From: Candidatus Nomurabacteria bacterium
GTDB lineage: Bacteria > Patescibacteriota > Minisyncoccia > Phycocordibacterales > UBA918
Direction of reading: 5' to 3'
Length of the DNA: 64,000 nucleotides
Assembly (NCBI GenBank): GCA_020632075.1
Contig: JACKGH010000001.1
Coordinates: 131,216-195,215, forward strand
The notes under the pieces were generated by a model. That model did not search any database and was not told where the DNA came from. It saw only the letters and a program-made list of their open reading frames with translations. A program made the translations under genes and the position numbers. Positions 29,595 to 63,439 of the stretch are shown in pieces. How positions within the stretch are numbered: the first letter of the stretch is position 1; every line of letters begins with the position of its first letter.

Positions 29595-29627
29595 TAAGAA
29601 ATAGACAGTAAATTCGTCCTCGAACAT

Positions 29628-34330: not shown

Positions 34331-34351
34331 GTTCTAACGATGCAAACAAAA

Positions 34352-34376
34352 AACTTCCTTTACTGGAAGTTTTTTG
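34352..34376 (+). terminator. Rho-independent terminator AACTTCC-tttact-GGAAGTT + T-run
   Basis: Read directly from the sequence. Confidence 0.65.
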
Positions 34377-34437
34377 TTGTATACAACCCGGGTCTCACAC
34401 TGCTGTAAGGTGGTATGATGGTAAGGTTAATCTTTAA

Positions 34438-35538: not shown

Positions 35539-35557
35539 GCTGCGGTACACTATCTGT

Positions 35558-35965: not shown

Positions 35966-36016
35966 TGCTGCAAAAACCCTTAGTTCGGCAGGGTACAATG
36001 TACTAGAAAGTACGAC

Positions 36017-37918: not shown

Positions 37919-37975
37919 TTCATAGTGTGGGTAATTATGATTTTATTTACGAGCGAGACAGTATAATGTTGTTGT

Positions 37976-38449
37976 ATGTCCTTTCTGCAAAGACTCAAGG
38001 GTAGGGGCGTCCGCGATGGTGAGGGGCTTTTGTCTGACGCTGAAGAAACAGCGGTTGATAAAGTTGCTCAGCTACATGTAGACGTATTTCAAACAGAGCG
38101 TCTCATTGTGGTGTATGCGCAGTCAGCAGGCGCAGACATGAATGATGTACATGTGTCTATCGAGGGCGATGCTGACATTGTGTTGATCGAAGGTAAGCGT
38201 GTGCGACCAGAGTACATCGTCTTCCCAAAGAAAAAAGTTAAAGGATCATTTGTGGCCGAAGAGTGTGTCTGGGGTGATTTTTACCGTCGTATCATTTTGC
38301 CTGAGAGTGTGAACATCGATAAGGCGGAAGCAAAGATTAAAAACGGTGTGCTTATCTTGGTACTCCCACTGCTTAAGCCAAGTGAGAAAGAGAAGGTCGA
38401 ACTTCGAGTTACTACTGGACGTAAGCCACTAAAGAGAGATACCAAATAA
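37976..38449 (+). CDS. Hsp20/alpha-crystallin family small heat-shock protein
   Basis: ACD core ...VEECVWGDFYRRIILPESVNIDKAEAKIKNGVLILVLP. Confidence 0.8.
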   Translation: MSFLQRLKGRGVRDGEGLLSDAEETAVDKVAQLHVDVFQTERLIVVYAQSAGADMNDVHVSIEGDADIVLIEGKRVRPEYIVFPKKKVKGSFVAEECVWGDFYRRIILPESVNIDKAEAKIKNGVLILVLPLLKPSEKEKVELRVTTGRKPLKRDTK

Positions 38450-38455
38450 TTGTAA

Positions 38456-40006: not shown

Positions 40007-40037
40007 CGTTTACGAAAAATCCACAACTTTGATGCAT

Positions 40038-40069
40038 ATACCGCGCACTTCTACCAAAGTGCGCGGTAT
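40038..40069 (+). terminator. Hairpin ATACCGCGCAC-(10-nt loop)-GTGCGCGGTAT; its right arm overlaps two TATAAT -10-like hexamers (40067-40078) upstream of the giant gene
   Basis: Read directly from the sequence. It may act as both terminator and promoter. Confidence 0.5.
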
Positions 40070-40096
40070 AATTATAATTAGCCCTTTCTCTACCAA

Positions 40097-43000
40097 GTGG
40101 GGAATGGGGCTGTAGTTGATGTGAGTGTAAGTAGATTGCACAACTCAATAAAGAATAGAATAAAAGCCAATTTTAAAGCGCCGGAGCGGAGGAAGCAGTG
40201 TTTTAGTGGTGTCAAAAAAGTCTTGCATCCAAAGGTCTTTGTTTTACTTCTTCTGGCTCTGGTGGCGCTTCCTTACGTGCATGCGCAATTTTCATCAGAT
40301 GCGTACTCTATTCGAACCGTACATGTCTTTCCGTCAGTAGTTACGGGTGATGGTTGGAATAATCTTGAATCTATTACTTTCCAGAATCTTGAAGAATACG
40401 CTTTGTTTGATGAGTTTAATGACATCAATTCAGCGACCATGAATCTCAGCAGAGCTTCAATGTATCAGCGTGGGAAAGAGTACGTTGATTCGTCTATTGA
40501 AACAGTGGTCGATCAGAATTCAGATTTGAATGAAGTAGTAGATGATGTTGTGGTTCCATCTGCAGAATCAGTTGCTGGTGGTGAGCAAAGTGGCACATCA
40601 ACACCTGGAATTGAGTCTGCCGAGATGTATGCTTCCACGAGTGCTAAAGCTGAGTCACAAGCTCCTACAGAAGCTGATATTTTGATAGTGCCAGAAACTA
40701 GCGTAGTAACAACAACTGATTCTGTCTCGACTGATCTCTCAACGACGACAGTGCTGAAAAAAGTAGAATCCGTATTTGCCTTAGCGGTTGAGGCAGTTAC
40801 CGAATTCTTTGGTATGGAGACTGCAACTACAACAGTTGAGAAGGTTGTGTCCACGTCTACTCCAGAGCTTGATTTGGAGACATCTCCAACAAGTACTGAC
40901 TCAGTCGTCTTTGGTGCGCAAAGTGAGATGGTGTCAACGAGTGCACTGTTATTAAGCGCAAGCACTTCAGTTGTCGCTGATGTTGTTGCAACATCAGCGA
41001 CAACGACTGTGCAGAGTGAAGTGTCTGTGGAGACAGAGCCTGTTGATTTTGTAGAACCTTCTCAGAACACTGAGTCTGCATCTAGTACTCCGTGCGCTGA
41101 AAATTGTGGATCGTACGAGATAGCTCTTAATGATTTTGGTTATCCACTTGGTGAGCAGGTTGAGATAACTGGTGCTCAATTACGGCTATCATTTGCTGCA
41201 CAAACTCGAACCACCAGAGATGCTATTCCTGAATTTTCTCTTGTATACAGTGTCGATGGTGAACAAACGTGGCTGGCAGCAGGAACTATTCTTATTGATG
41301 AGGAGGTTTCAAATAGTATCAACGGCGGTTTCTTCCTTTTTGCATTGCCTGAGGTCACTGATCAGGTCTCGCTTAATACCTTGTCGGTTAAGCTCAAGTA
41401 CAATGACGATCCATACAATCTTTCTGGCCTGTTTGTCGAGAGTGTCTGGCTTGAGCTCTTTACGATTGAGCCCCCTGAAATGGAACCCCTTCAGGATGTT
41501 GCAGCTCTTTTGGCTGATGATGGCTACTCAGATGAGATGTTGAGCGGCGATATTTTACAGTTGCCAGATGGTGAGCATTTACGCTTTAAATTTACTGACG
41601 ACAACACTGATGAGTCGTTGGTAATCAAGACAACTGAACGTACGTACGAAGGTTTTTCTGAGGTGGCAACCTATTTCAGTGTAACGAACACGAGCGACGA
41701 GGTTGATGACATTACGGTACAAGCGTACTTCCCAGATGGGGTTGGAGAAGTGGTGTCAATAGAAAAGTTTACACAAAATAAGCCTAGAGATGTTGTCGTT
41801 CCTGAGTATCGACCGTATGTGTATCACTGTGAAGCTGGCTGGGAATACGCTGGTGAAGTTACGGCGGAGAGTCTCGAGGAGTTGTCGCAGCAGCTTTCTT
41901 TGCCAAGAATTTCCGCTCCAGCAGAAATACTGGAAACCAGCACGTCGACTGCTTCTGATAATTCAGTAAATCAGGTTGAACAGGTGGCTACTTCGACTGA
42001 GGAGATAGAAGTTCCTACGGTAGAATTTGATCTTCCAGCATCATCTGCAACAACCACTGTGCTACGGCAACTGCCAGGTGTTTCTGCGCTATTGCAGTTT
42101 TCTACTACAACTTTGATCGACAATGACAACGAGTTGTCGGATGTAACAAGTTCGTCGTCAGAGGCTAATTCTGATGAAGCTAATCTTGGCGACGGTGAAG
42201 ATCTGATTGAAGCATATGCTTGTCGAAACACAAATGTTGTGCGTAAGTGTGATGAGTTAGATGGTTCAAATACCGCATGTCGGGTGAATCAGGTAAAGGT
42301 GGCAGAATATGAGGTTGTGAAGTATGCGCCGGGTTGGGTGCAGACAGCTATAGCTGAAGGGGCAATGTCAGAGCCGGGATTCTTCAAAAGGGCGATTCAG
42401 TTTATTGGCTTTGGTCCTGATGTGAAGGAGGTTCCTGAGCAATTTGAAGTACGTACACATACGCCTGATACTCACACTATTCAGCCAGGTGAGACGCTGT
42501 ACTTCAAGATGAATATTGCATTTCCACCGTTCTCTCGTGGTGAGTACTGGATTGAAGCTGTTGGTGATAGTGAGTATGGTCTACTTGACCCGTTCTGGTC
42601 TTCTGAGTGGTCATATCGAATGCCGATACGGGTTTCTAACCCTACAGGAAGCGATCAAACAGAGTACCAAGTCTTCTTTGAACTCGACAGCGCTTTAACG
42701 GATTTCTGGAGTAATGTAAACAGTGATGGTTCAGACATCCGATTCATCCAAGAGTTGCCAAGTGGCACATTTAGCAATGAAGGTACAGCTGTCAATAATT
42801 GGCTTGACTTTGATTTTACGCATCGCATTCCAATCGAAATTCCTGCTGGATCAGTTGATGCTGATCTAACTGATTTCCCAATTTCAATTGATTTGTCTTC
42901 GCTTGGGTCTGACTTTTGGACAAATGTTAAAAGCGATGGTGGTGATGTGCGCGTGTACACATCAGGAGGTACAGAAGTGGCCATTGACCTGGCACACTTC

Positions 43001-46000
43001 GATTCTGCGACTGAGCTGGGTGAGTTGCATTTCCTGGCGTCATCTGTGCCGGCCCAGTCTGCAACAACATATTACTTGTACTATGGAGATAGTACGTTGT
43101 CTGGATATGCTGACACGGACCCGCTTGGATCTCAGGCAGTATGGGTAAATTATAATGCGGTGTATCACTTTAATGATGATCCAACGACAGTTGGAAATAT
43201 CATCGCCGACGAAACTGGTAATGGTAATGATTTAGAGGTGTTCAGTGCTGGTCTTGCCACAACTACAGGTCAGTTTGGTTTGGCTGTTGACCTTACCGGG
43301 ACAGGGTCTGGATACCTTTCGAGTACTACTTGGTCATTCCCTGGTGGAGATCCGCTGATTGTAACAGGTTCGTACTACATGACTTCTGAGCAGAACGAAG
43401 GCCTGTTTCAGTGGGGTAATGGCGGTGCTGGAGATCAGATAGAGTTTAGACCATGGTACAACACAACCAATGGATTGTTCTACTTTGGTGTTACTGGTGG
43501 CGCTACATACAACACCTTACCGCAGGCGACGACATCCTGGCATGGCTTTGCGGTGATGGGTACAACCTCCGCTTCTGGGGAGAATATAGCGTTTGAAGAC
43601 GGTAAGGAGGTGCTTCGTGTTGCTCAGACAATTGCTAACCCTTCCAACACGATCGGATTTGAAGTGGGTCGAGAAGGGGGTGGCTCAATCAATGCCTTTA
43701 TTGATGAGCTTCGAGTTGCAACGAGTACCCGTTCAGAAGCTCGCATAAAAGCAGAATCAATCGCCCTTGAAGCTCCTGAGCAGTTGTACGTACTACAACC
43801 GATTCAGGTGCCTAATAATGCCGCCAACTTGTCATGGTATAGCACTAGTTGGGATGGTCGCATCAGATTATCGATTCCAGCAGCAAAGATCCAAGAGGAT
43901 CTAACAGATTTCCCGGTGTATCTAGATCTTGGAACACTGGGTAGCTCATTCTTTACGAGTGTAGCAAGTGATGGTCGAGATATACGAGTGACTGAAGGTG
44001 ATGGTGTGACTGAGGTGCCAATTGAAATAGTAGAGATTAATACAGGAGCAGGGACAGGTGAAATGTACTTTAAGGCTGACTTATCAACCTCAGGCGCCAA
44101 TGATTTTTACGTCTACTTCGATAATTCTGACGTAAGTGCGTATGGTGATGATGATACCTACGGTGCGCACAACGTGTGGACCAACGGGTTCCAAGCTGTT
44201 TACCACCTTAGCGAAGACGCTAGTGGTACCGGTAATCCAGATGTGTACTTAGACTCAACAGCCAACGAATATCATGGTGATGACGAAAACTCATCAAATG
44301 GTAAGAGTGGACTTTTTGGGTCAGGTCAGGAGTTTGGCGACAGTCAAGTTGACTACATTAGTTTGCCATATCAAGTCATGGATGGACTCACTGATAATAC
44401 TGTATCGTGGTGGCATATTTCTTCAACTTCTGGAGATCAGACGATTGTAAGCGGTGCGAATAGTACTCAATTCAATGAGTTCTGGGAACGTCTTGATAAC
44501 AATACGACAATTGTTGTGTACTCACAGGGTGCTGGAGAGACATTTACTCTTGATAACCCATCCACTTACAACGATGACACTTGGCAGTTCTTCATGACCA
44601 CATCACAGGATGATATTGACGAAATGAATCTCTATCGTAATGGTGTGCCCGATAATGAAAATCCAGACCCACAACCGATCGTTGCGCTCGATATCGAACC
44701 AGGTGGTCTGATCATTGGTCAAGATCAGGACGCCCTTGGCGGTAGCTTTAGTACAGCTGAGAACTTCGAAGGTATTTTGGACGAACTACGCTTTGCAAGT
44801 GTTGTTCGTAGTGAAGGTTGGGCTGCAGCTGTGTATGACAACATGGCTAATCAAAGCTCATTCATCTCGACCTCATCATCTGAAAGCCTCCAGGCCACTA
44901 CTTTCGTTGAGTTAGATTATTGGTTGCAGTATTTTGACAGCACTGCTGATGAGGCTGACATCTGGGTTCAGGTTGAAGATTTGCCGGCTGACGAAGATGC
45001 AGTCATTTATCTTTACTACGGCAACGTAGGTGCCCCAAGTGTTAGTGATGAGCTAGCAACCTTCTCGTACAGCACTTCGACTGATCTGTACTACGTTGTA
45101 GATAATAGCGGTGTAACGCAGTTGTCGGTAACAAGCTTGATTGATGGTAACGAGGTGTCACTCGATGGCGCAGCCGCAATCGCTCTTGATCAAGGAGAGT
45201 CAACTACGTTTGGTTCAGTCTCAAACACGTCTGTGATTAGTGCGCTTGGTCCTATTTCAGGAACGCTCACTGGTTCTGGTAATGATAGCTCAGATAGTAT
45301 TGCGCCTATTAGTTTTGCTACCACAACATTTGCGATTCCGCTTAACCGCTCAGCCAACCGTTGGTACATGCTGTCTCCGTACGCGAGCACGACAGTACGC
45401 ACGTACATTGGTAATAGCGGAACAGCAAACCAAACATTTAACATCACTACAGGGGCTGGTGCTACTGCAACCACTGATCCAGCAGATTCGGGAACCGGGA
45501 CGGACGGTAGTGGTGTTGTGATCGAGTCTACCAGTCCTATTTTGGTCTCTCACAGAAGTACCAATCCTGGTGATGGTATTGTTGCTTACCCACCAACAAC
45601 AAGAGACATTTTCGGTGTCGATTCTCAGTATTTCCATCTATCTGCTACTGCTGATGATCCGGATCCAACAGTATATTGTTCAAATGGTTCTGGAGGAAGT
45701 CCTACAGGTACAACTCGGGGTGAGAAAGATGATATCACTCAGTGTACAACCGGTTCTGAAGGTACAGGTTCTGCTGTGCGTTTTGCTGGTGCAGCAACAC
45801 CAATCGCAGCGGTACAGTTTGCAGACTCTGATGGTAATGAGGCTACAGCGTTTTGGGCGCAGCATGATTTTGGAACTCGCTATGCAATGACAAACGACAG
45901 TGCGTACGCAGCCGTTGTCTGTTCGCCCCGTTTTGCAAGTGTTGATCTTGAAGTAATTGACTCCTCTGGTAGTACGATCAGTTCTGGCACCTGCACGCCA

Positions 46001-55000: not shown

Positions 55001-58000
55001 TACAACGTTTCAGTCGATGGCGTTCCTTCTACTTTTTGGCTTTTCTCAAATGGTTCAGGCAATTTATACGGTGAAGCATTTGATAATGATGATGGAGATC
55101 CGGGTTCGATTCAGTGGGATGATAGTAACTTCGCAATTACGATCTCAGGTATCGTGTTCCAAGATGATGGCGTGACTCCAGAAACGTACCCAGTATGTAA
55201 CGGTTCTACCGAAGTTGTAACTGTTGTGCTTGATGGTACTGATACATACACTGCACCATGTGATCCGTTTGATGGTAGTTATGCTGTTACTGGTATCACG
55301 TATACTGGTGAGCCTGAGATAGTTACGTATCTTGAAAGTAGCGCTGCAACGCCGCAGGTCAATGTGTCAATTTACGATGAGACTACTGGTACTGGCACAG
55401 TGGGGGGCGGTGTAATGACAGTGAGTCGGCCAAGTGTAGTTGATGGGTCGGTGTTGGTGCTGATTGCCGGTAAAGATGATGATCCGACTATCACTGAGCC
55501 AGCCGGTTGGACCGCAATCGATACCTTGGGTAATACTACGGGTGATCAAATTGATACCGGTGCCTGGTACAGAGTGGTAGCTGATGCAAGTACGGAACCC
55601 GCCACATACGATTTTACTGCTGATAACGGTGAGGGATTTAGTTATTGGATGGGTTCATTAATAAATGTTGATACAAGCACACCGATTGATGTGGCGAGTA
55701 CCTGGACGAAGTTACAGAATCAATATGCAGCAGTTTCTCCAGAAGTGACCACGGTTACCAATGGTGCCTTAGTACTTTCTGCTTGGTATACCTATCGTGA
55801 TACCGAAACTGTGCCACCAGTTTATGCATGGGAGAGTCGAGCTGACAATTTGGTAGGTCCTGAAACGAACAACTTGAGCGTTGCATCGCTTGCGATGCCA
55901 ACTGCTGGGGCAACTGGTGATGCAACCACCACAGGTATCATTGCAAGTCGTGAGACACATGTAGGTCAGTTTGTGTTCCGTCCTGCGGCAAGTCCAACAG
56001 GCAGTAGTTCGGCAATTGCGGCAGCAGTCACAAAGACACCGCTTGGTAATAGTGGTTCTCCGTATGGCGTGGTGATGTTGCGAGACCAGGCAAATGATTA
56101 CGGCACTGTTGCTGCAGCAGCTGATATTGTTGTACCAAGTCCACATGTTGAAAATGGTGATGTGCTAGTGGTGGTGATTGGTAAGGAAGACGACTTCAAT
56201 ATTACAGCGCCATCTGGTTGGGTGCTTGGTTCTGAACGAATCGAGGCTACCGGTAATGATATGTACACTGCAATCTGGTATCACGTAGTGACCAATGCTG
56301 GATTAGAGCCGTCGACTTACAACTTTACGAGTAATGATACTAGTGTTGAGGAGTACTCATACTGGATCGGGTCATTTGATGGGGTAGATACGACAAATAT
56401 TTTTGATGTTTCTCCGTCATGGAGTAATCTCCAAAACGATTCTTCACCTGCTGCACCGGCAGTTACCACCGTGACGGATGGAGCCTATGTGCTTGCTGCG
56501 TGGTACGTCATTGATGATTCAAACTTGGATATGCCAGGCACTCCTTGGGACACGCTTGTTCAGGACGCTGTCACTAATAATCGCCTCTTGGCTCTGGCAG
56601 GCCGCTCAATGCCATCATACGGCAATACCGGCGCAGCTGTGATTACCGGTGGTAGCACTGACGACGTGAATACTGGACAGTTTGCACTTCGTCCTGCTGC
56701 CATATCAGTCCCGAGTGAAATCGCTGATATGGATCTGTACGAGAATCGAGTTATCGTGCGTCATGAAGATTCAGCACCGCTTACTATTGCTGACATGGTG
56801 ATCTTTGATAACAGTGATGATGTTGATCTCCCATTTAGTGCTACTGCCGGATCTCCTGATGACCTCGCTATACTGCCAGGCAGTGGTCTTTACGTGTGGA
56901 ACAATAAAGAATTCGCTCCATACGGAACAATTGATCTCCAGGGTAACGGTACCACTACGGCTGATGGCTCATTGGCAATCGGTGCGGGGGCGACCTTCAC
57001 CAGTTCAAGTACCCATAGCATTACTATCGGCGGCTCATTCCATGGTGAGACAGGTGCTACCTTTACTGGTGCTTCAAGTTTGGTGACCTTCACATCGACC
57101 TCAACTGGACAAACTATAACCTCGTCTGCAAGTTCTACCTTTACTTTTTACGATCTTGCGTTCACGGGAACTGGAGGTGAGTGGCGCGTATTGACTCCTA
57201 TCACAGCCCAGACTGACATTCTTGTGGCTGATGGTACGCTTTCCGGTATTGCAAATGTAACAGTTACTAATGGTTCTCTCTACGGTGATGGTCTTGTTGA
57301 TATGACCGGAGGCACGACAAGAATCAATAATACAAACACACTAGGTGGTTCTAACGAATGGAATTTCTATAACCTAACGCTCGGTAGTGGCTCTGTTGCC
57401 GGTGTTACTACTCGCGCCTCAAATGCGACAACTACAGTACGTAACATTCTTACGATTTCTACGGCGCACTTCCTTGATGCTTTTGGTTCTGTGTGGGATA
57501 TTCAAGGAAACGGCAACACGTTTGTTGAGAGTGGAACCTTCCTCGAAGGAACGAGTACCATTCGATATAGTGGTGCGACACCAAATGTCTTGCGTACTAC
57601 ATATAGAAACTTAGTCATTGATACTGAAAGTGGCGGTAGTGTCACTGCGGCTGCGCCTAGTACTGGATTACAGGTCTTGGGCAATCTAACCGTTGGTGCG
57701 CTTGGTACTTCGACTCTTAATCTAAACACCAATGACCCTGTAACTGCTGTTGGTGGATCGGTGCATATTGGCACGCTTGGCTCACTGCTTGGAAGTAACT
57801 CAGCACTTTTGACTGTGCTCGGTAACTGGGATAACGACGGAACCTTTACTGCGAATGGTGGAACAGTCCAGTTCTCTAAGTCTGGTGGTAGCGCATCGGT
57901 TGCTGCGGGCGGATCATCATTTGCAAATGTCAATGTTCTTGGTACTGCGACATACACCTTTACAGAGAGTGCTACTGCAACAGCGAGTTTCACATTGAAT

Positions 58001-61000
58001 ACTGGCTCATTTACTTTAGCGAGCGGGGAGGCTTTGGCGGTTGGTGGCTCGTTCACGAACAGCATGTCAGACACAAACACAACCTGGACCAACACAACTT
58101 TGAGTTTATACAGTGGAACGGCATATGTAATAAATAGTAAGTCTACAGGCGATGCGTATGAGAATGTAGTTGTATCAAATAATACGCATCCTCGATTCTG
58201 GAATTCGACCACTACCGCAGTTACCACAGCAGCTGGAAGTTCGCTATATTCAATGGATCATCAAGGTGTTGACGGATACTTGTATATTTATGGTGATCTG
58301 ATGAGTGACACATACGACGATCATTGGAGCTACGCGACAGACTTTGATGGAACTGCACTTGGCGGTTCGTCACGTCAGGCGGTTGTAGAGATCGAGAGCG
58401 GAGGTTCGGTTTTGTACACAAGTGGTTCGCTTTCTGTCATTGGCGCTGATACAGCTTCAACAACCATCTCAGCAACGAGCGGAACCTACGAAATGACACT
58501 TGCAGGTGACACTGATGTGGTAATGAATTACTACGTGGTGCGAGACACTACGAGCGATGGTCTCATCTTCACCGGTGTGCCGAATGTTTCGGATCTGTCA
58601 TATGGTGATTTTGAAGTGGCGATTGCAGGCGGCTCGACCATGACAGTGGGTGGCATGGTAATCGACGTAAATCCAGCACAAGAATACAACTACATCAGTA
58701 TGGCAACTACGACAGCGATAAGTGCCTTCAACGTAACTGCAACTGGAACCAGTGCGAGTGCGTGGCGTTATGTGAACATATACGGGAACCTTGGCGGTGA
58801 AGCAAAAGATGTTGATCCGGGGGGAGATCCTGGCTACATCACTTGGCAAGATTCAGCTGCTATTATCAACATCTCTGGTACTGTCTACAGTGATGAAGGT
58901 TCATCACCAATGGGTGCGACGGTTTGTGATAGTTCTACAAATAGTATTCGCCTCAGCGTGAATGGTTCAACCTTCTACGACACGACATGTGCTATTGGTA
59001 CGGGTGTGTATTCATTTACAGGTGTTAGTTATGGCTTGGGCAATACGTTGACTGTGTATATTAATGGAGAGGCTGAAAAGGCTACAACCATCACTCAAGA
59101 TCCGATTTCTTCAATTAACAATTTTGATTTGTATGAAGATCGAGTCATCATTAAGCATGAAGCTGCGGCTCCGATGACAGTGGCTGATATGGGCACATGG
59201 GATAGTGACGATGACCCCGATGTACTATTCGATGTTGAGACAGCGGGCGGCGACTCTTTGACACTCCCATCAGATACAAAATTGATCGTATGGAACAATA
59301 AGCAATTTGATCCAAATGGCGACGTCACTATCTCTGGAGGTGGTGCTGGAGGAGCGCATGATGGAACGTTTGAGCTTCGAACGGGCGCAACCTTTAGTGG
59401 CGGCTCTGGCGAGGTGTACACGATCGGTGGAAGTCTCATTTCTGGATCAAGTGCAGTCTTTAATCCAGGACAGTCAACCACCACGTTCACAACATCGGGT
59501 GCAGCAAGAACTATCGATACAAACGAAAGTGGATTCTACAATCTTGAGCTTAACGGTAGTGGTAGCTGGACAGTTTCAGACACAAACCTTTCAGTTGCAG
59601 GTGATTATGTGCAGTCAACTGGATCAATTACTTTGCCGGCTGCGACAACCACCATCGGCGGATCTTTCACAGTTAGTGGCGGTACATTCGACGCAAATAG
59701 CGGCGTTCTTGCGTTCACAGCGAGTGACGCAGGGAATGATGTCTCCTTTAATGGATCAGATGCTGCAACTGTGTTCTTTGCTGGAGCAGGTAGTTGGTCG
59801 ATGTCAGATGTGAGAGCAACAACAACGGCTGACTTTATTGTAGCAAACGGTACAGTGACACTCCCAGGTGGAACGATAACTGTTGATGGAAATTTTGTGG
59901 TGCTCGATACGGTGCTGCACAACAACGGTCTGGTGAAGCTTATCGATACGGCTGGTAGCTCAATCCTTACACTTAGCGGCAGTGATCTGTATAGCGTTGA
60001 TGTTCAGGCGGGTGGTGGTGACTACACTTTGTCTGATGCGTCAGCGGCACTTCTTGGTGATCTGACAATCACTTCAGGCACTTTCACTGCTGGTGCTGGC
60101 ACGCTGTCTGTTGCTGGTTCCTTTGACACGAGTGCTGCAGTGTTTGCACACAATAATGGTACCGTCTTGTTCAACTCAAGTGATACTGGAGAAACGGTCG
60201 ATCTGGGTGACAATGCTCTCTATAATGCAACCTTCGGTAGTCTAGCTGGTGGCTGGACAGTGTTGAGTAATGCAACGACCACACGTAACTTTGCACTCAC
60301 TGGAGCGACTTCGTTCACCATGAGTTCAGGAACTCGCTTGTACGTTGGTGGAGTCTTCACCAATCTCGTTGGTGGTAGTGCGACTGACTGGCAAGGTACA
60401 CGCATAGTACTTGACGGAGCCAATGAGTACGAAATTGGTGGTAAACTGATCAGTACTGAGCAATACAATATTCTTGAGATTGGTGCAAACAGTGATATTA
60501 GTACTTGGAACACTGCTGCGACCGCGACCGTAGTTGCTGCGACCGCCTCATGGTATTCGCAAGATCATGCTGGTACTGATGGTGCGTTAAACATTTATGG
60601 TGATTATCACATTGCCACTACGACTGAATACTGGAACTACTCGACAGATTTTGATGGAACTGCTCTTGGTGGTTCGTCACGACAGGCTATGGTTTCAATT
60701 GCGGGCGGTGCAGCAGTGACTCTCGATGGTGGTGTGCTCAATATGCTTGGCGGCTCAGGTGCAACGACATCAGTAACTAATCAGGGTTCTGGTACGTACA
60801 CCTTTAGTGCGACAGATGGTATCTTGAATGCTGATACCTACTCCTTCCGAAATCTCGATGCAGCTGGTCTGCAGTTGCTCGGCACGCTAATGATCACTTC
60901 TTTGGATGATGGTGATTTTGAACAGGCAGCAAACGGCGGGACATTAATTACACTAGCGTCGACGACGTTGGACACAAACGCGTCACTACTCATTACAGAT

Positions 61001-63439
61001 ACTCGATTTGCGACTGGTGGCTTCACTCCTGGGGCTAACGTCACACTTGACGCAACAACCACAAACAGTTGGAGCTTTACAGGATCTCTGGGTGATCTCT
61101 GGGGTGAGGCATATGACGTTGATGGAAGCGATGATTGTAGTTCGGTGCGTTGGGACGATAGTCAGTGTCTCCTCACTGAACAAACTACGTACCGCTGGAG
61201 AAATGATGATGGCGGGGAAGGAGCTGTTTCGAGTACTTGGTTCAACACCAGTTGGAGTAAGCGGCAACGAGTTCGTGTCATTAACTCTGACGCAACACCG
61301 TACACAGACGTCGCAGTTAAGTTGACAGTGCCGTACGATGCCGACATGCAAACTGACTTCGATGATCTTCGCTTTACTGACGCATCAGGCACAACTTCAA
61401 TTGAATACTGGAAGGAGCGCTACAATACTGGCTCGGAAGCTACAGTGTGGATTAAGGTGCCAACACTTGCTGCTGATGCAGTAACAGAGATTTACATGTA
61501 CTACGGTAATGTGTCTGCTACATCAAGTAGTGATGCGAGCAATACCTTTGATGTGTACGATGACTTTGAGGACAATGACATCAGTGAATATTCAGGTGAT
61601 ACACACTTGTTCAATACGGCTGGCACCTTTGCTTACGGTGGAGGATATGGACTTGATACTGCCGGGAATGAGAGCGCTAAAGCGACTGATGGTATTGCTC
61701 GTACCGACGTAACTGTTTCGCAAGGGCAGATCATCAGATACATGCAGTATGTCGATACTACAGCCGGTAGTGGTGATGAGGTGTGTACCATGTTCGCGGT
61801 GCAGTCTCCAGTGACCAATAACAACAACTATGCTGTTTGTCTTGAACAATTTGGAACAGATCGAATCTCTTTGGTAAAGGATGTGCAGAACACAGATTCA
61901 ACAGGTACGCTACTTGATACTGCTAATGCGACATTTAGTACCGGTTGGTATGAAGTTGAAATTGACTGGCAAACTGACGATACCATTGATGTTGCGCTCT
62001 ATACGGCTGCAGGAAGTTTGGTAGCCACTACTTCAGCCACTGACAGTACGTATTCATCAGGAGGTATTGGATTCACCTTCTGGTTCCAAAATGGTGGCTG
62101 GGATAGTGTCGTCGCATGGCCGCGGACAGATTCTGTACCGGTGGTGTACTTTGGTGACGAGCAAGTAACAGGCGGTGCAACATGGGCTGCTGCTCAAGAT
62201 ACTGCGCTGAGTGGACTGGCCTTTAATGAAACAGCACGCTTGCGTATCGGTATTGAAAATACAGGTCTCGATATTGAGAATCAAAACTTCAGACTTGAGT
62301 TCGCTCCTCGCCTCGCTGCTCCGAGCTGTCAGGCTGTCTCAGGTGGTTCGTTTACGGCGGTGCCGGTTGCTGCTAGTTGTGGCACTTCAGCAATCTGTAT
62401 GACCACTTCTGCGAGTACTACAAATGGCGATCCGACAACGGATCATTTGGTGACAGCAGCTGGTGATTTTGTGGCTGGTGAAATTGTGGCAAATACCAGT
62501 AATCAGACCAGCAATCTTGATCTCATTCAGAATCGGTACACTGAAGTTGAATATGCTATTGCTCTGACGGTGAACGCAACCAATGACGCATACTGTTTCC
62601 GAGTAACTGATGGAGGTGCAACCTTGGACTCCTACGCGAAGCTTCCTGAGTTAACGCTCGCATTTGACCCATCGTTGGATACTGTTAGCCTTAACAGTGG
62701 TCTTGATATCACATTGACACCAGGAGCAACCACGACAGTTGTAGCCTCCACCACAGTTACTGACCTAAATGGTGTTGCTGATTTGTACCTCGCAACCACA
62801 ACCTTCTACAAGACCTCTGTTGGTGCGTCCTGTACACCAGATAACAATGATTGTTATGTTGCTACCAGTACCTGTAGCTTTAGTAGCTGCACAGCAACTA
62901 CGTGTACGCTGTCGTGTAGCGCTGATTTCCAATTCCACGCAGATCCAACTGATAATGATGGTGGCGAGGAATGGTTTGCTTTTATGGAAGTAAGCGATCT
63001 TGGAGGAGGTGTTGACTTTGACACATCTATTGGCGTGGAACTACTGACTCTACGGGCACTTGAAGTCCAGAGTGCAATCAACTATGGAACTGTAGATATA
63101 AATCAAAATACCGGAGCATTTAATCCTTCTGTTTCACTTCTGAATCTTGGAAATGAGGCGATTGATGTTGAGATTGCTGGTACTGATATGACCGATGGTG
63201 TCGCATCGATTATCCCAGCTGCTCAGCAATTGTATGCAACGTCCACGTTTAACTATGAATCCTGTACTAGCTGTTCAGCTCTGAGTGTAGTTGGTAGTGA
63301 TCTTGAGGTAGATCTGAATAAGCCACTCGTCGATAGTCCGCTTATTAGTGATGATGTCTACTGGGGAGTAGAGGTGCCATTCGGAGTTGCAAGTAACCCA
63401 CATAGTGGCGTCAACACTTTTACAGCAATCTCAGATTAG
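40097..63439 (+). CDS. Giant secreted surface protein (7780 aa; 23.3 kb) with at least 6 DUF2341-like modules, 5 LamG-like (concanavalin-A-like) domains, FN3-like units and beta-helix-like G/T/S-rich repeats
   Basis: A single uninterrupted ORF. The N-terminal hydrophobic segment VFVLLLLALVALPYVHA is a signal peptide, so the real start may be the TTG near 40226. The DUF2341 signature is a (P/I)xxIx...FP(V/I)Y(V/L)DL(S/G)xLGxxFWxxVxSDGxD(I/V)R(V/I)T...GELHFLA...(F/Y)YLYYxN...(A/N)VWxxYxAVYH block. It recurs at ~42.6, 43.85, 50.36, 51.96, 53.99 and 61.24 kb. Each of the first five is followed by a LamG-like block ending (I/L)DELR(F/V)A...EYNN. FN3-like YYWRVRADDPNG and YWWRTRAKDPNG blocks are at ~47.1 and 47.9 kb. 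Large internal duplications are at 55.4/56.1 kb, 56.7/59.1 kb and 53.5/58.25/60.55 kb. Confidence 0.85.
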   Translation: MGNGAVVDVSVSRLHNSIKNRIKANFKAPERRKQCFSGVKKVLHPKVFVLLLLALVALPYVHAQFSSDAYSIRTVHVFPSVVTGDGWNNLESITFQNLEEYALFDEFNDINSATMNLSRASMYQRGKEYVDSSIETVVDQNSDLNEVVDDVVVPSAESVAGGEQSGTSTPGIESAEMYASTSAKAESQAPTEADILIVPETSVVTTTDSVSTDLSTTTVLKKVESVFALAVEAVTEFFGMETATTTVEKVVSTSTPELDLETSPTSTDSVVFGAQSEMVSTSALLLSASTSVVADVVATSATTTVQSEVSVETEPVDFVEPSQNTESASSTPCAENCGSYEIALNDFGYPLGEQVEITGAQLRLSFAAQTRTTRDAIPEFSLVYSVDGEQTWLAAGTILIDEEVSNSINGGFFLFALPEVTDQVSLNTLSVKLKYNDDPYNLSGLFVESVWLELFTIEPPEMEPLQDVAALLADDGYSDEMLSGDILQLPDGEHLRFKFTDDNTDESLVIKTTERTYEGFSEVATYFSVTNTSDEVDDITVQAYFPDGVGEVVSIEKFTQNKPRDVVVPEYRPYVYHCEAGWEYAGEVTAESLEELSQQLSLPRISAPAEILETSTSTASDNSVNQVEQVATSTEEIEVPTVEFDLPASSATTTVLRQLPGVSALLQFSTTTLIDNDNELSDVTSSSSEANSDEANLGDGEDLIEAYACRNTNVVRKCDELDGSNTACRVNQVKVAEYEVVKYAPGWVQTAIAEGAMSEPGFFKRAIQFIGFGPDVKEVPEQFEVRTHTPDTHTIQPGETLYFKMNIAFPPFSRGEYWIEAVGDSEYGLLDPFWSSEWSYRMPIRVSNPTGSDQTEYQVFFELDSALTDFWSNVNSDGSDIRFIQELPSGTFSNEGTAVNNWLDFDFTHRIPIEIPAGSVDADLTDFPISIDLSSLGSDFWTNVKSDGGDVRVYTSGGTEVAIDLAHFDSATELGELHFLASSVPAQSATTYYLYYGDSTLSGYADTDPLGSQAVWVNYNAVYHFNDDPTTVGNIIADETGNGNDLEVFSAGLATTTGQFGLAVDLTGTGSGYLSSTTWSFPGGDPLIVTGSYYMTSEQNEGLFQWGNGGAGDQIEFRPWYNTTNGLFYFGVTGGATYNTLPQATTSWHGFAVMGTTSASGENIAFEDGKEVLRVAQTIANPSNTIGFEVGREGGGSINAFIDELRVATSTRSEARIKAESIALEAPEQLYVLQPIQVPNNAANLSWYSTSWDGRIRLSIPAAKIQEDLTDFPVYLDLGTLGSSFFTSVASDGRDIRVTEGDGVTEVPIEIVEINTGAGTGEMYFKADLSTSGANDFYVYFDNSDVSAYGDDDTYGAHNVWTNGFQAVYHLSEDASGTGNPDVYLDSTANEYHGDDENSSNGKSGLFGSGQEFGDSQVDYISLPYQVMDGLTDNTVSWWHISSTSGDQTIVSGANSTQFNEFWERLDNNTTIVVYSQGAGETFTLDNPSTYNDDTWQFFMTTSQDDIDEMNLYRNGVPDNENPDPQPIVALDIEPGGLIIGQDQDALGGSFSTAENFEGILDELRFASVVRSEGWAAAVYDNMANQSSFISTSSSESLQATTFVELDYWLQYFDSTADEADIWVQVEDLPADEDAVIYLYYGNVGAPSVSDELATFSYSTSTDLYYVVDNSGVTQLSVTSLIDGNEVSLDGAAAIALDQGESTTFGSVSNTSVISALGPISGTLTGSGNDSSDSIAPISFATTTFAIPLNRSANRWYMLSPYASTTVRTYIGNSGTANQTFNITTGAGATATTDPADSGTGTDGSGVVIESTSPILVSHRSTNPGDGIVAYPPTTRDIFGVDSQYFHLSATADDPDPTVYCSNGSGGSPTGTTRGEKDDITQCTTGSEGTGSAVRFAGAATPIAAVQFADSDGNEATAFWAQHDFGTRYAMTNDSAYAAVVCSPRFASVDLEVIDSSGSTISSGTCTPGANDPGKAYFGTDGDSVVYTAGHQVISTNGVPFYVTYEDVSVEQDEKNIMGTVQGRKSSGEFASYVFGPQELAIDAEWEQLSFMWYENTAAVTPTTPWQIGTEGVTEGVAITGAGAVDNGDVLRLRLNLEASNATGSVDTNAFTLQYAAAASGQCDLVTAWFDLGEQGSTTASFSGYNNAGVADGATLPSTLLTDTTISGTYEERNYSDFLPSDVPVGDVVEYDWVIEATNVSVNTNYCFRLTRAQGSALEIYTTYPELETVGPPNVPTLLVFFDNERTTVLTPVLEFTTVDIADDDINYQVQVDDDYDFSSTVIDKNSDDNFTLFENINTPSDKAPFTSGARIRFTALTALSPTTTYYWRVRADDPNGSATSSAWSTPFSFTTDTTLTVSEWFQTTDEQFNTNTNSGVTIGSDQVAVSASPGTVVSTAIDFDDATLGNAWGELDWNDTETSGSITYQIEYNNNGSWTLVPDSVLPDNSTGTSTGPISLLDLDTSTYNEIRVVATLTGTTLSIQDWVVRWGLRVETPTQGDPFDNQKVPTTTPVFDFVSSDPQGDDLEYEISFSTDIDFVAASTTYNSSTSPQFANTLDGGDTSPFTTDQTITFSTPFGTPFTNGATYWWRTRAKDPNGGDSWSPWSQPDSFTVDTAVTLSTWYQTTQAQFEQGELTGVVASTSDSVVVSGEIGEYGTAVVTNNNWLTINTLRSYTDMVVVASAEFDGSSHGNSRTPRIRNKTTDSFEIKVDDYTDGFTGSTIVDYIVMEAGDWTIADGGSGTRVLAGTEADVSDVQIDTYNDTTGVTINFSPAFSTPPVVLATVSSNNDSNWIATHVDGGSTRDGEVTASTMRLALAVSRHTTSAHSGPEDIDYIVMAPQNNGTNNSVQFEAFNSNDAVDDVPTNGGYSQTFPTAFASAPAVTVVHNNAEDGGNGGFALKDTSGTQNGTSIFMSILEDGASADQHTQEVVSVIAFQNSSGLIDRHNTGALSGTIAGEDIIFSDGAGPKFDNFSWSSTTAGTSDLTVQIQYRVSEGVYALVPDSQIPGNSSGINSGLIDLTSVDINTYPVIRAYATLTCGGGGCPTLDDWQLEWGEGVNMSGTIKEYDRITNVTSGTVRAAVNGSLVAGTGSISAGTWTMSNVTAFAGDIVTVWVDGAAEANEAVAAFVYDGTGDITGVEMFEQHLSISADENGTTTNALLGLNDSTAIGDEDIFYQVDGFNNLTVCGQGTCTDANLYVGSGNIYIPNSAGGVVTNTHDFVNDGFIELDSNTFNISGSWYNNATSSNDTSTINLTASTGTETIVSSEDPLAFHNLSFGSGAGGATFTIAADLDLSGNLTVASGTLARDGYDFTVAGNITNGTGGYWSGTGTTTFDGSGSKTWTDNNPATQNIGNVVVDGASTFLTVTTDVAAYDVVIGANDTLAGGNNTIYVGGDWVNAGTFNAESSTVEVTVDDRTYPPIIPGSADWYADTAFTDRIPVVIQDSEVPGTLTNFPVYVDLSHLGDDFWSDVQSDGDDIRITRSDGQTELPYEIVSFDPTNKTGELHFLANSISGTATTTFYLYYNNPSASGYLVSGTYGRNAVWSEYTAVYHMHDDPTTIGNQVTDATGNGYDLLVETEALATSTGQLGYGISLVGVSGLLRASDFQWTTGSPLTTSGWYKMPAASGEAIWQFGTGADPDQLFFRPWYATNNGEFDFGNTTGDTYTFSPRDTSNWNHFFTLGATSTSDFNYVYHDNILRESQAQTVANPGNTNGTGLQIGRQGTTGSLEAEIDELRFAALLRDTDWMTAEYNNQYTPQNFYATSSIESYVADLVIDEATHNITAGGSAFNHITFDDATTTPAFTEASVVVNGDFTVATGTVTLPNSKLTVGGSFINNSYFMHNNAEVEFISNGAATITLNGTQFFNALYDVTFDGSGTFTFTDANATTSGDLIIDDGTVVFPSGTLSIGGTLQNTGGSFNANGGLVVFASLENESVMTGGSSFADVSFGQSGVSAGWYDPAWDNRIYIQIASTSVPGALSNFPVYVDLGSLGATFWSAVASDGADIRVTTADGSTEVPVEVVEIDPGTKTGELHFLAPLLSGIADTSFYLYFGNTSAELPAANSVYGSENVWVGYEAVYHFNEDPTFGVTDVTGNGKDLAPTVGTPSTTAGLLGVALDTTATNVMMEDSDWAWQSGDDLISSGLYFQNNFDTGALWEFGTSCATDDCLAFRPWYDNATRGYHNFGETTGTDYNFTRDNSVWHHFTTIGRAANGESVEIYEDAVQRDVYTQSGSGENPSQTGLQIGRFTTNTYMDIDIDELRFATTVPSSVWIETEYNNLTDVANFYSTSSQAYLEVVPSFTLSESITDVNGDVSIYFSNLVAPSNNFTIGGSAQNTGGSYDPNNATTTFDSNDTGETFDFGDVSFYNLAFDGVGGGWTVSTTTVLANLTLANGASYTQATNTTMAVGGIFSNQFAAAATDWTQSTLALSGGDYTVTGRLDSGDSYATVIVLGDTDIVIWNSSIATTSVRDTSSIYLPDYNNSDGVLRIYGDYIRTSGSEYWSYATDFDGTDLTGGGERQVTVQLGHGASVQMATGTTLGVIGASGATTSVSAISGIYSLSVNAGTVAVDYASFQNTGKIGLALTGGTSVSTLTRAAFSVAGGRSGITVDADTVNAQPSSEFGSVYFATSSANSIYEPAWNDQVVVTVPSGVVSETMTEFPLYVDLSTLGAGFWAGVQSDGRDIRVTTDAGVELPIDLVEIDSAAQTGELHFLAPELSTVNDTAFYIHFDNPAATAYGADDEYGANAVWVNYEAVYHFDEDPSIQITDMTGNERNLFPTVGAAATTSGQIGTAIDMTAGNVTLQSIGWTWPAGQDLISSGLYFQSAADTGALWEFGTSCVADTCIAFLPWYTGTTGYNRFGELTGSDYAFARNNTIWHHFTTIGRSADTESVDIYEDNILRDTYPQTASGENPSQTGLQIGRYTGGTYMDIDIDELRFTTSEPSTARIDAEYNNLLTPSAFYATSAAQTFQYNVSVDGVPSTFWLFSNGSGNLYGEAFDNDDGDPGSIQWDDSNFAITISGIVFQDDGVTPETYPVCNGSTEVVTVVLDGTDTYTAPCDPFDGSYAVTGITYTGEPEIVTYLESSAATPQVNVSIYDETTGTGTVGGGVMTVSRPSVVDGSVLVLIAGKDDDPTITEPAGWTAIDTLGNTTGDQIDTGAWYRVVADASTEPATYDFTADNGEGFSYWMGSLINVDTSTPIDVASTWTKLQNQYAAVSPEVTTVTNGALVLSAWYTYRDTETVPPVYAWESRADNLVGPETNNLSVASLAMPTAGATGDATTTGIIASRETHVGQFVFRPAASPTGSSSAIAAAVTKTPLGNSGSPYGVVMLRDQANDYGTVAAAADIVVPSPHVENGDVLVVVIGKEDDFNITAPSGWVLGSERIEATGNDMYTAIWYHVVTNAGLEPSTYNFTSNDTSVEEYSYWIGSFDGVDTTNIFDVSPSWSNLQNDSSPAAPAVTTVTDGAYVLAAWYVIDDSNLDMPGTPWDTLVQDAVTNNRLLALAGRSMPSYGNTGAAVITGGSTDDVNTGQFALRPAAISVPSEIADMDLYENRVIVRHEDSAPLTIADMVIFDNSDDVDLPFSATAGSPDDLAILPGSGLYVWNNKEFAPYGTIDLQGNGTTTADGSLAIGAGATFTSSSTHSITIGGSFHGETGATFTGASSLVTFTSTSTGQTITSSASSTFTFYDLAFTGTGGEWRVLTPITAQTDILVADGTLSGIANVTVTNGSLYGDGLVDMTGGTTRINNTNTLGGSNEWNFYNLTLGSGSVAGVTTRASNATTTVRNILTISTAHFLDAFGSVWDIQGNGNTFVESGTFLEGTSTIRYSGATPNVLRTTYRNLVIDTESGGSVTAAAPSTGLQVLGNLTVGALGTSTLNLNTNDPVTAVGGSVHIGTLGSLLGSNSALLTVLGNWDNDGTFTANGGTVQFSKSGGSASVAAGGSSFANVNVLGTATYTFTESATATASFTLNTGSFTLASGEALAVGGSFTNSMSDTNTTWTNTTLSLYSGTAYVINSKSTGDAYENVVVSNNTHPRFWNSTTTAVTTAAGSSLYSMDHQGVDGYLYIYGDLMSDTYDDHWSYATDFDGTALGGSSRQAVVEIESGGSVLYTSGSLSVIGADTASTTISATSGTYEMTLAGDTDVVMNYYVVRDTTSDGLIFTGVPNVSDLSYGDFEVAIAGGSTMTVGGMVIDVNPAQEYNYISMATTTAISAFNVTATGTSASAWRYVNIYGNLGGEAKDVDPGGDPGYITWQDSAAIINISGTVYSDEGSSPMGATVCDSSTNSIRLSVNGSTFYDTTCAIGTGVYSFTGVSYGLGNTLTVYINGEAEKATTITQDPISSINNFDLYEDRVIIKHEAAAPMTVADMGTWDSDDDPDVLFDVETAGGDSLTLPSDTKLIVWNNKQFDPNGDVTISGGGAGGAHDGTFELRTGATFSGGSGEVYTIGGSLISGSSAVFNPGQSTTTFTTSGAARTIDTNESGFYNLELNGSGSWTVSDTNLSVAGDYVQSTGSITLPAATTTIGGSFTVSGGTFDANSGVLAFTASDAGNDVSFNGSDAATVFFAGAGSWSMSDVRATTTADFIVANGTVTLPGGTITVDGNFVVLDTVLHNNGLVKLIDTAGSSILTLSGSDLYSVDVQAGGGDYTLSDASAALLGDLTITSGTFTAGAGTLSVAGSFDTSAAVFAHNNGTVLFNSSDTGETVDLGDNALYNATFGSLAGGWTVLSNATTTRNFALTGATSFTMSSGTRLYVGGVFTNLVGGSATDWQGTRIVLDGANEYEIGGKLISTEQYNILEIGANSDISTWNTAATATVVAATASWYSQDHAGTDGALNIYGDYHIATTTEYWNYSTDFDGTALGGSSRQAMVSIAGGAAVTLDGGVLNMLGGSGATTSVTNQGSGTYTFSATDGILNADTYSFRNLDAAGLQLLGTLMITSLDDGDFEQAANGGTLITLASTTLDTNASLLITDTRFATGGFTPGANVTLDATTTNSWSFTGSLGDLWGEAYDVDGSDDCSSVRWDDSQCLLTEQTTYRWRNDDGGEGAVSSTWFNTSWSKRQRVRVINSDATPYTDVAVKLTVPYDADMQTDFDDLRFTDASGTTSIEYWKERYNTGSEATVWIKVPTLAADAVTEIYMYYGNVSATSSSDASNTFDVYDDFEDNDISEYSGDTHLFNTAGTFAYGGGYGLDTAGNESAKATDGIARTDVTVSQGQIIRYMQYVDTTAGSGDEVCTMFAVQSPVTNNNNYAVCLEQFGTDRISLVKDVQNTDSTGTLLDTANATFSTGWYEVEIDWQTDDTIDVALYTAAGSLVATTSATDSTYSSGGIGFTFWFQNGGWDSVVAWPRTDSVPVVYFGDEQVTGGATWAAAQDTALSGLAFNETARLRIGIENTGLDIENQNFRLEFAPRLAAPSCQAVSGGSFTAVPVAASCGTSAICMTTSASTTNGDPTTDHLVTAAGDFVAGEIVANTSNQTSNLDLIQNRYTEVEYAIALTVNATNDAYCFRVTDGGATLDSYAKLPELTLAFDPSLDTVSLNSGLDITLTPGATTTVVASTTVTDLNGVADLYLATTTFYKTSVGASCTPDNNDCYVATSTCSFSSCTATTCTLSCSADFQFHADPTDNDGGEEWFAFMEVSDLGGGVDFDTSIGVELLTLRALEVQSAINYGTVDINQNTGAFNPSVSLLNLGNEAIDVEIAGTDMTDGVASIIPAAQQLYATSTFNYESCTSCSALSVVGSDLEVDLNKPLVDSPLISDDVYWGVEVPFGVASNPHSGVNTFTAISD

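Follow-up and report, generated by a model that had tools for sequence, protein, structure and literature searches.

A giant open reading frame with an export signal

The DNA analysed here is a 64,000-nucleotide stretch of Candidatus Nomurabacteria contig JACKGH010000001.1 (positions 131,216 to 195,215; hereafter the window, in whose own numbering all coordinates are given), and it contains a single giant gene. Positions 40097 to 63439 of the plus strand form one open reading frame (ORF) of 7,780 amino acids (aa) with zero internal stops, in agreement with the earlier note made from the sequence alone, which had described a stop-free 23.3-kb ORF encoding a mosaic surface protein. By our own arithmetic (about three stops per 64 codons), the chance of 7,780 consecutive stop-free codons is approximately (61/64)^7780, near e^-370. 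The guanine plus cytosine (GC) content and skews of the giant ORF resemble those of the remainder of the window. The encoded protein is rich in T, S, G, A, V and D, contains only 3.1% lysine plus arginine, and has an isoelectric point of about 4.05 and a mature mass of about 815 kDa.

A Sec-type signal peptide, read from the sequence without a predictor, is located at 40223–40285 (aa 43–63, ..KVFVLLLLALVALPYVHA|QF). The sole hydrophobic segment of the entire protein, aa 46–63, ends at an A-x-A-like site (VHA|QF) that is kept in the orthologs; this single N-terminal hydrophobic segment combined with a conserved cleavage-like site indicates that the protein is exported by the Sec pathway. The start of the gene is ambiguous, since gene callers chose either GTG at 40097 (Logan call) or TTG at 40223 (NCBI call). 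Upstream of the signal peptide, 42 codons (40097–40222) encode a motif, IKNRIKA.FKAP, that recurs in frame in two orthologous loci, L008 and L010, and in part in a third, L012, and is missing in L007 and L009. This patchy distribution makes the true start uncertain, and the segment could represent a 5′ leader or an N-terminal extension that has been conserved.

Integrity of the assembly

The encoded protein is repetitive, and an ORF of this size might in principle have arisen during assembly, by repeats being collapsed, expanded or joined into a chimera. Two related sequences could be read in that way: one short-read contig (Logan SRR14234111_14603, our L003) is interrupted within cassette 3 of the gene, near aa 3558 (window position ~50770), and in a JGI metagenome contig (3300056850, Ga0558718_01290; L014:1–10869) the ortholog is divided into no fewer than 11 ORFs. 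However, the best intragenic DNA repeats display only 66–80% nucleotide identity and the longest exact repeat measures 23 nt, so that they should be resolvable by short reads, and the age of these internal repeats makes an assembly collapse very unlikely. Moreover, the window is 100% identical to contig JAGQMK010000006.1 (GCA_020428695.1) and to Logan contigs from SRR14234113 and SRR14234111 over the region compared, which extends up to 48449 and thereby includes the initial ~8.4 kb of the gene; the identity also holds for the first ~0.9 kb in a third Logan contig (SRR15882951). The full gene was recorded by gene callers in these other assemblies, with 7,738 aa in the NCBI contig and 7,780 aa in Logan. 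Finally, the gene has collinear, near-gapless orthologs, one of them in a closed genome obtained from hybrid long-read data (CP060229.1). We consider that an artefact, which the earlier note had mentioned as something that would overturn its reading, has been effectively refuted already and retains next to no probability.

The split ortholog in L014 is collinear with the giant protein at 60–70% identity, with about 15 frame changes, and its small called genes could reflect a long-read assembly that was left uncorrected or, alternatively, a pseudogene in decay. Given the break in L003, metagenome protein sets can be expected to include such genes in fragmented form.

Five DUF2341–LamG cassettes

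A profile built from the window's own cassettes, together with the motifs FPxYxDL, GELHF and DELRF, detects exactly five full cassettes in the giant protein, each composed of a DUF2341 or DUF2341-like half followed by a LamG half, with mutual amino acid identities of 26–58%. Cassette 1 (42800–43816, aa 902–1240) and cassette 2 (43835–44893, aa 1247–1599) are located close to each other, the LamG half of cassette 2 being pentraxin-like. Cassette 3 (50372–51400, aa 3426–3768), cassette 4 (51959–52975, aa 3955–4293) and cassette 5 (53990–55000, aa 4632–4968) are separated by repetitive stretches. The gathering threshold of PF10102 (DUF2341), 23.4 bits, is passed by cassettes 3 (32.5 bits) and 1 (25.9 bits). 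Cassettes 4 and 5 remain below it when their DUF2341 halves are scored alone (18.4 and 15.3 bits), yet these two cassettes, which are 58% identical to each other, are 43–58% identical to cassette 3.

Two additional DUF2341 domains are not part of cassettes. The first is a canonical copy near the C-terminus (61214–61582, aa 7040–7162; Pfam match aa 7087–7162) with PF10102 scores of 78.8–82.7 bits. The second is split: a segment matching the N-terminal half of the cassette/DUF2341 pattern (42593–42775, aa 833–893) lies just before cassette 1, and the complementary half (44894–45076, aa 1600–1660), which matches PF10102 positions 14–66 with 52.9 bits, directly follows cassette 2. When the two halves are spliced, the match becomes contiguous over PF10102 positions 1–66 and its score rises from 52.9 to 60.4 bits; the spliced halves also align by eye with the canonical copy (aa 7040–7160) across the junction DIRF...(I/L)(E/D)YW. 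These observations suggest that cassettes 1 and 2 (~710 aa) were apparently inserted into a loop of this third DUF2341 domain, a nested insertion that is supported, but not proven, by the sequence comparison. The N-terminal half is found in all close orthologs. The earlier note had counted six copies of the module, five of them followed by a lectin-like LamG block. The five cassette-type copies and their lectin-like blocks are indeed present; the count of six has to be revised, since the canonical copy and the split copy (aa 833–893/1600–1657) are two more DUF2341 domains.

The AlphaFold2 (AF2) model of cassette 4, a structure prediction that the earlier note had proposed for one cassette, is of high confidence, with a predicted local distance difference test (pLDDT) value of 92 and a predicted template modelling score (pTM) of 0.92. 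It consists of a β-sandwich of ~125 residues rigidly packed on a LamG jelly roll, forming a single two-domain unit. This model and the existence of cassette homologs that are 30–36% identical over 98% of the cassette and bear both PF13385 (Laminin_G_3) and PF10102 lead us to accept the LamG fold, and the assignment is sound despite sub-threshold Pfam scores. In cassette 2, the Pentaxin family of the Concanavalin A-like lectin clan (CL0004) passes its cut-off of 25 with 35.3 bits. The top structural match of the cassette LamG is the carbohydrate-binding domain of a glycoside hydrolase family 43 (GH43) arabinanase. Sequence identity with such LamG/ConA-like modules (AbnA domain 4, the carbohydrate-binding module CBM40, the clostridial neurotoxin Hcn domain and pentraxins) amounts to 7–16%, and each LamG of the giant protein differs from them in being, as predicted by the model (pTM 0.92), rigidly packed on a DUF2341 sandwich.

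When cassettes are aligned, the residues that are nearly invariant mostly fall within the DUF2341 half. The same residues, and the same cassette, are present in stand-alone DUF2341 plus Laminin_G_3 proteins of 350–600 aa, some of which are fused to a MotA/ExbB domain (PF01618); DUF2341 has been described as appended to MotA/ExbB-like subunits (PMC12505986). In contrast to these small proteins, the giant protein embeds five cassettes in a secreted polypeptide of 7,780 aa, without MotA/ExbB domain or nearby MotA/ExbB gene.

DUF2341 domains (COG5306/MJ1470, arCOG03508) are also known from archaea, where type IV pilus (T4P) loci contain DUF2341 proteins proposed to be tip adhesins (PMC4858521) and where a DUF2341 gene in the epd pilus locus of Methanococcus maripaludis was hit in a transformation screen (PMC10133366). 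These archaeal proteins, e.g., MMJJ_08210 of M. maripaludis, share with the giant protein the DUF2341 domain, a large size, an extracellular location and a proposed adhesive role, and, by analogy with them and with pilus lectins of the PilY1/PilC type, the giant protein might be a pilus-associated tip adhesin. We regard this as distinctly unlikely, since its N-terminus is of the Sec/signal peptidase I type and not a prepilin (class III) signal, and since zero pilus genes are present in the 64-kb window or in the 10 kb downstream of the gene in the orthologous loci. The giant protein also differs from the archaeal ones in its bacterial origin.

Other regions of the giant protein

The N-terminal region (40286–42592) alternates between globular segments (aa 64–135, 330–600 and 700–832), which are 52–67% identical among orthologs, and hypervariable S/T-rich linkers (aa 136–330 and 601–700), which are 28–30% identical. 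After the split DUF2341 domain, a conserved Cys-containing region (45074–46816, aa 1660–2240) has no relative in Pfam, NCBIfam or PDB. It is followed by two FN3/Ig-like units (46820–48052, aa 2242–2391 and 2501–2652), revealed by self-match and by an Ig_Rha78A_N match of 46.7 bits (cut-off 27.4) over two stretches; the two FN3-like units described in the earlier note are therefore real. Each unit is followed by a repeated domain (aa 2382–2492), which occurs again at aa 2942–3056. Between them and this last copy lies an H-type-lectin-like region (48074–48931, aa 2660–2945) with an H_lectin score of 28 bits for a cut-off of 24. This match, at about aa 2765, is weak, with only 21 residues aligned; three similar units can be recognized by eye.

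A G/T/S/N-rich stretch with a period of ~70 aa (49274–50371, aa 3060–3425) precedes cassette 3, and a second periodic stretch (51401–51958, aa 3769–3954), with a period of ~78 aa, precedes cassette 4. A third one (52976–53989, aa 4294–4631) is the first copy of a three-member family that recurs at aa 5915–6257 and 6643–7026. After cassette 5, a domain of ~218 aa is present in tandem, as detected by self-match (55340–56701, aa 5082–5300 and 5318–5535). It is an orphan, none of the 10 homologs found carrying a Pfam domain. The adjacent super-repeat region (56702–61186, aa 5536–7030) contains the pairs 5540–5698/6338–6493, 5915–6257/6643–7026 and 6211–6376/6981–7027, and shows a period of ~76 aa within aa 6400–6800. 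The three families of long internal duplications previously noticed were all recovered at their proposed places (aa 5082–5298/5318–5535, aa 5540–5698/6338–6493 and aa 4298–4626/5915–6257/6643–7026), and two further repeat families were added, aa 4969–5132/6211–6376/6981–7027 and the pair 2382–2492/2942–3056 mentioned above. The G/T/S-rich stretches, which had been compared to β-helices, are real, with a periodicity of 70–78 aa (z of 4–7); no Pfam, NCBIfam or PDB sequence match was obtained in these periodic stretches. Beyond the canonical DUF2341 copy lies a conserved domain (61583–62146, aa 7163–7350) of no recognized family.

The regions aa 7163–7360 and aa 1660–2240 were considered as cryptic LamG or cassette copies and ruled out, as neither displays hhalign similarity to the cassette profile. 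Sequence and profile searches against PDB with aa 330–600, 1660–2240, 2650–2945, 5082–5535, 6400–6800 and 7350–7780 yielded nothing meaningful, and NCBIfam searches with ten segments lacking a family gave no match. Altogether, about 37% of the length of the giant protein can be assigned to some family or fold.

A strictly C-terminal module

The C-terminal module (62144–63436, aa 7350–7780) is the best-conserved part of the giant protein, with 75% identity among orthologs, and is predicted by AF2 to consist of three Ig-like β-sandwich domains (pLDDT 90.9). A fold search with this module retrieved just generic tandem Ig-like arrays with low template modelling scores, and these matches point to no specific function. 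A sequence search retrieved 1,426 clusters at an E-value of 1e-3 or better. Among 110 representative relatives, ranging from 174 to 7,696 aa, the last 256 aa are located at most 15 residues from the C-terminus in 108. Thirty of the 150 best representative relatives sharing the module are at least 5,000 aa long, and these carry from zero to five cassettes.

The last ~165 aa (62933–63436), corresponding to the final Ig-like domain, recur with 27–35% identity at the C-terminus of a 623-aa protein encoded by a neighbouring gene in the orthologous loci. This shared end, which closes with ..YWG.EVP.G....G.NTF.A, was seen in six of the seven loci holding the 623-aa neighbour (e.g., L008:35256–35816, L009, L010, L012 and L013). 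Such a strictly C-terminal and shared position suggests that the module may have a role in sorting or anchoring.

Orthologs and evolution of the mosaic

Orthologs of the giant gene were retrieved by a search for related loci and a search of protein representatives. Six other Patescibacteria genomes encode collinear orthologs with 55–80% identity, and the frame is open over 7,535–7,875 aa in five of them. One is located in the closed 994,774-bp chromosome CP060229.1 of Ca. Nomurabacteria HK-STAS-PATE-25 (L008), which comes from a hybrid Nanopore and Illumina study of activated sludge in Hong Kong (PMC8518188); the gene occupies 2.4% of this 995-kb genome. The metagenome-assembled genomes (MAGs) carrying orthologs are labelled Ca. 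Nomurabacteria, Pacebacteria or Saccharibacteria, which fits the origin in small-genome bacteria that had been proposed from the sequence. The six closest sequences align nearly without gaps, with a mean pairwise identity of 62%.

In a neighbour-joining tree built from the 30 full cassettes that six orthologs contain, the copies of cassettes 2, 3, 4 and 5 cluster according to their place in the protein, with one clade per position, and not according to their genome of origin, indicating that the duplications predate the species splits and that the cassettes have not undergone concerted evolution. Cassette 1 is fast-evolving and falls into divergent groups. The number of cassettes varies from four to six among close orthologs: L007 holds a sixth, very divergent cassette near the position corresponding to aa 3300 of the window protein, whereas L012 lacks cassette 5 and has its cassette 4 replaced. 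The LamG halves are more variable than the DUF2341 halves in all five cassettes, and the LamG half of cassette 1 varies more than any other globular part of the protein, with a mean identity of 43% and a minimum of 21% among orthologs, compared with 62% overall.

The earlier note had interpreted the arrangement of cassettes and their divergent duplications as a sign of ongoing intragenic recombination. The data do not support this proposal, the duplicates being ancient (26–58% identity for amino acids and 66–80% for nucleotides, without long exact repeats), the cassettes grouping by position and the orthologs aligning nearly without gaps. Gene conversion between cassettes was also considered and rejected, as the longest DNA tracts of high identity measure 27–48 nt and lie in conserved motifs. 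As judged from these comparisons, the evolution of the mosaic would be better described as a slow modular turnover, by gain, loss or replacement of whole cassettes on the time scale of species, combined with a faster divergence of the lectin faces.

A scan of metagenomes for strain-level variants yielded one further ortholog, which is distant (L015). A strain or sister population from another sample is represented by L005 (ENA ERZ27309210), with 96.3% nucleotide identity over 33404–39552; this contig stops before the giant gene.

A conserved neighbourhood of secreted and membrane proteins

The giant gene is preceded on the same strand by genes encoding a secreted protein with a C-terminal type-I dockerin containing two DxNxDG loops (36017–37918), an HSP20 protein (37976–38449), 83–92% identical in orthologous loci, and a cohesin protein (38456–40006) with an N-terminal signal, a C-terminal transmembrane (TM) helix and a charged, coiled-coil-like tail. 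From this architecture, the latter would display its cohesin at the cell surface as a membrane-anchored scaffold. A GC-rich, terminator-like hairpin with a 14-bp stem (40037–40070, plus strand) lies between the stop codon of the cohesin gene (40006) and the giant ORF; it is followed by ATTATAATTA, and its A/T-rich tail includes TATAAT. Downstream, a gene for a secreted FN3 protein starts at 63444 on the plus strand and continues beyond the end of the window (64000); its counterpart in the closed genome encodes 527 aa. The FN3 protein and the cohesin/dockerin pair had already been pointed out as neighbours.

The order WxLIP-like/dockerin/HSP20/cohesin/giant/FN3 is conserved in the orthologous loci, the first two genes lying outside the compared sequence in some of them. 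The downstream set, as seen in L008:29672–39505 and in the same order in L009 to L013, comprises the FN3 protein, an ATP-binding cassette (ABC) ATPase, a MacB_PCD/FtsX permease, the 623-aa protein, a 317-aa protein with a signal and a C-terminal TM segment, a second dockerin protein (DUF4215, Big_6 and Dockerin_1) and a 390-aa secreted protein. The cluster neighbours of the giant gene all have signal peptides or TM segments.

The presence of cohesin and dockerin proteins flanking the gene in all orthologs could recall a cellulosome-like complex for polysaccharide degradation, in which the giant protein would serve as a substrate-binding or enzymatic scaffold tied to these neighbours. The resemblance of the cassette LamG to the arabinanase carbohydrate-binding domain and the presence of a glycoside hydrolase family 18 (GH18) gene 9 kb upstream would also fit this scenario. 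We nevertheless consider it unlikely, since the giant protein itself has neither a Cohesin or Dockerin Pfam match, nor a dockerin Ca-loop motif, nor a recognizable catalytic domain, and since the metabolism of Patescibacteria is minimal (PMC11809585).

The ABC transporter genes conserved two genes downstream, together with the strictly C-terminal position of the terminal module, might alternatively suggest an exoprotein of the FhaB/two-partner secretion (TPS) or repeats-in-toxin (RTX) type, delivering a toxin or being exported by the adjacent ABC system. In support of such a relationship, Table S13 of the paper describing Patescibacterium danicum (PMC11809585) lists two Patescibacteria proteins of more than 4,000 aa from the same Hong Kong activated-sludge project (PRJNA648801; USN92160 and USN88639) that combine 3 FhaB (COG3210) matches with 6–7 DUF2341 matches. 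These two entries are probably orthologs of the giant gene, which encodes seven DUF2341-type domains, although their identity with this family is unconfirmed. Several features nevertheless make this type of exoprotein very unlikely here. The giant protein carries an N-terminal Sec signal, and it has no TPS, haemagglutinin or RTX Pfam match, its single GGxGxD motif being attributable to chance. No Pfam match at all was found in aa 64–830, i.e., no Haemagg_act domain, and neither the window nor the region downstream of the orthologs contains a TpsB-like gene. Furthermore, the C-terminus is Ig-like and the best-conserved part, unlike a polymorphic toxin, and the neighbouring ABC system is of the MacB/FtsX type and not an exporter of a type I secretion system (T1SS).

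A putative lectin-like adhesin

Taken together, we propose that the ORF encodes a genuine, Sec-exported, very acidic protein of ~815 kDa from Patescibacteria of the Paceibacteria/'Nomurabacteria' type which most likely works at the outside of the cell as a long, multivalent adhesin of lectin-like character, a reading to which we assign a probability of about 0.6. In this model, the five rigid cassettes, each combining a DUF2341 sandwich with a LamG jelly roll, would present several glycan-binding faces, spaced out along the repetitive β-rich segments, and the H-type-lectin-like units would probably add further ones. The protein could then bind surface polysaccharides of a host or partner cell, with the specificity being set by the more variable LamG halves, and by the one in cassette 1 in particular, while the tandem-Ig C-terminal module and the cohesin/dockerin, FN3 and MacB-type ABC proteins encoded nearby may hold or assemble it at the envelope.

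Several points weigh against this proposal. The giant protein contains no anchor (no LPXTG motif, C-terminal TM segment, dockerin or cohesin), which leaves its retention at the surface unexplained. LamG folds are also used in protein–protein binding, so that glycan binding is not guaranteed. None of the cassettes reaches the Laminin_G_3 (PF13385) threshold of 27.6 bits, the sole match to this family in the whole protein (15.9 bits) lying outside the cassettes; the profile searches advocated in the earlier note thus confirmed DUF2341 and Ig_Rha78A_N above their thresholds, whereas Laminin_G_3 stayed below threshold on all cassettes and no β-helix family was matched. Finally, the ~63% of the length without any family could hide an enzymatic or other activity.

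A more far-reaching version of the adhesin proposal, which we regard as doubtful, would make the giant protein the main fibre of a conserved surface apparatus specific to Patescibacteria and encoded by a cluster of ~12 genes: the WxLIP-like protein, the first dockerin protein, HSP20, the cohesin protein, the giant protein, the FN3 protein, the MacB-type ATPase and permease, the 623-aa protein, the 317-aa membrane protein, the second dockerin protein and the 390-aa secreted protein. In such an apparatus, the C-terminal tandem-Ig module would be a new envelope-sorting or anchoring domain, and the LamG faces would choose the host.

Giant proteins with DUF2341 domains have already been noticed in this phylum. 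The P. danicum study counted 149 Patescibacteria proteins of more than 4,000 aa in NCBI, 82 of them with FhaB and/or DUF2341 matches, and proposed a role in adhesion or host interaction (PMC11809585). The description of such proteins in the earlier note as rarely characterised is accurate, although they had already been inventoried in that 2024 work. The protein studied here belongs to the same phylum and size class, contains multiple DUF2341 domains (COG5306/MJ1470) and has a similar inferred role; it is an uncharacterised member of this known class and not a new kind of system. The authors of PMC11809585 reported that they found no full-length homologs of their own giants, and suggested a rapid reshuffling. 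In contrast, at least six species encode collinear orthologs of the giant protein of the window over its full length, within a conserved synteny. This full-length orthology and synteny, the way in which the cassettes keep their positions, the apparent insertion of two cassettes into a DUF2341 domain and the strictly C-terminal module are the new elements, and such a mosaic, stable across species, limits the idea that these giants evolve mainly by rapid reshuffling.

The giant protein can also be compared with the giant repetitive adhesins of other bacteria, such as the RTX adhesins LapA and SiiE or the LPXTG adhesins of Gram-positive bacteria, with which it shares its size, its acidity, tandem β-rich repeats with Ig-like domains and the disposition of ligand-binding modules along a stalk. 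It differs from them by the lack of RTX repeats, T1SS, LPXTG motif and sortase signal, and by an export indicated to be Sec-dependent. In these ultrasmall Patescibacteria, a gene that costs ~2.4% of a genome of ~1 Mb is a strong candidate for a factor in recognizing the host, with the variable LamG of cassette 1 as candidate specificity determinant. The defined cassettes, the strictly C-terminal module and the cohesin/dockerin/ABC cluster offer practical handles for its study.

Other features of the window

The window is rich in candidates for envelope and host-interaction functions. The WxLIP-like protein (34438–35538) has a signal at its N-terminus and a TM segment at its C-terminus, as does the protein encoded at L008:35948–36901; its match to WxLIP_PGBD is weak (25 bits, below the cut-off of 27.3), and it is reminiscent of the DUF916 component in the WxL/Csc cell-surface complexes of Firmicutes. 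A common N-terminal motif, ..SDTLSDS......SNHT.., which could be assigned to no family, occurs just after the signal peptide in a 381-aa secreted protein (33185–34330), in the dockerin protein (36017–37918) and in the 390-aa relative of the 381-aa protein that is encoded downstream of the cluster in L008 (38333–39505). Further upstream, positions 23480–30812 contain a run of genes for proteins of secreted type: a 1,467-aa protein with weak SdrD_B/PG_binding_1 matches, a CAP-domain protein and the GH18 protein. These are preceded by genes encoding an M23 peptidase with a PG_binding_1 domain (14745–15761) and a small leucine-rich repeat protein (14245–14718). ARAGORN and Rfam revealed a single RNA gene in the window, a tRNA-Ser(GGA) at 3096–3183.

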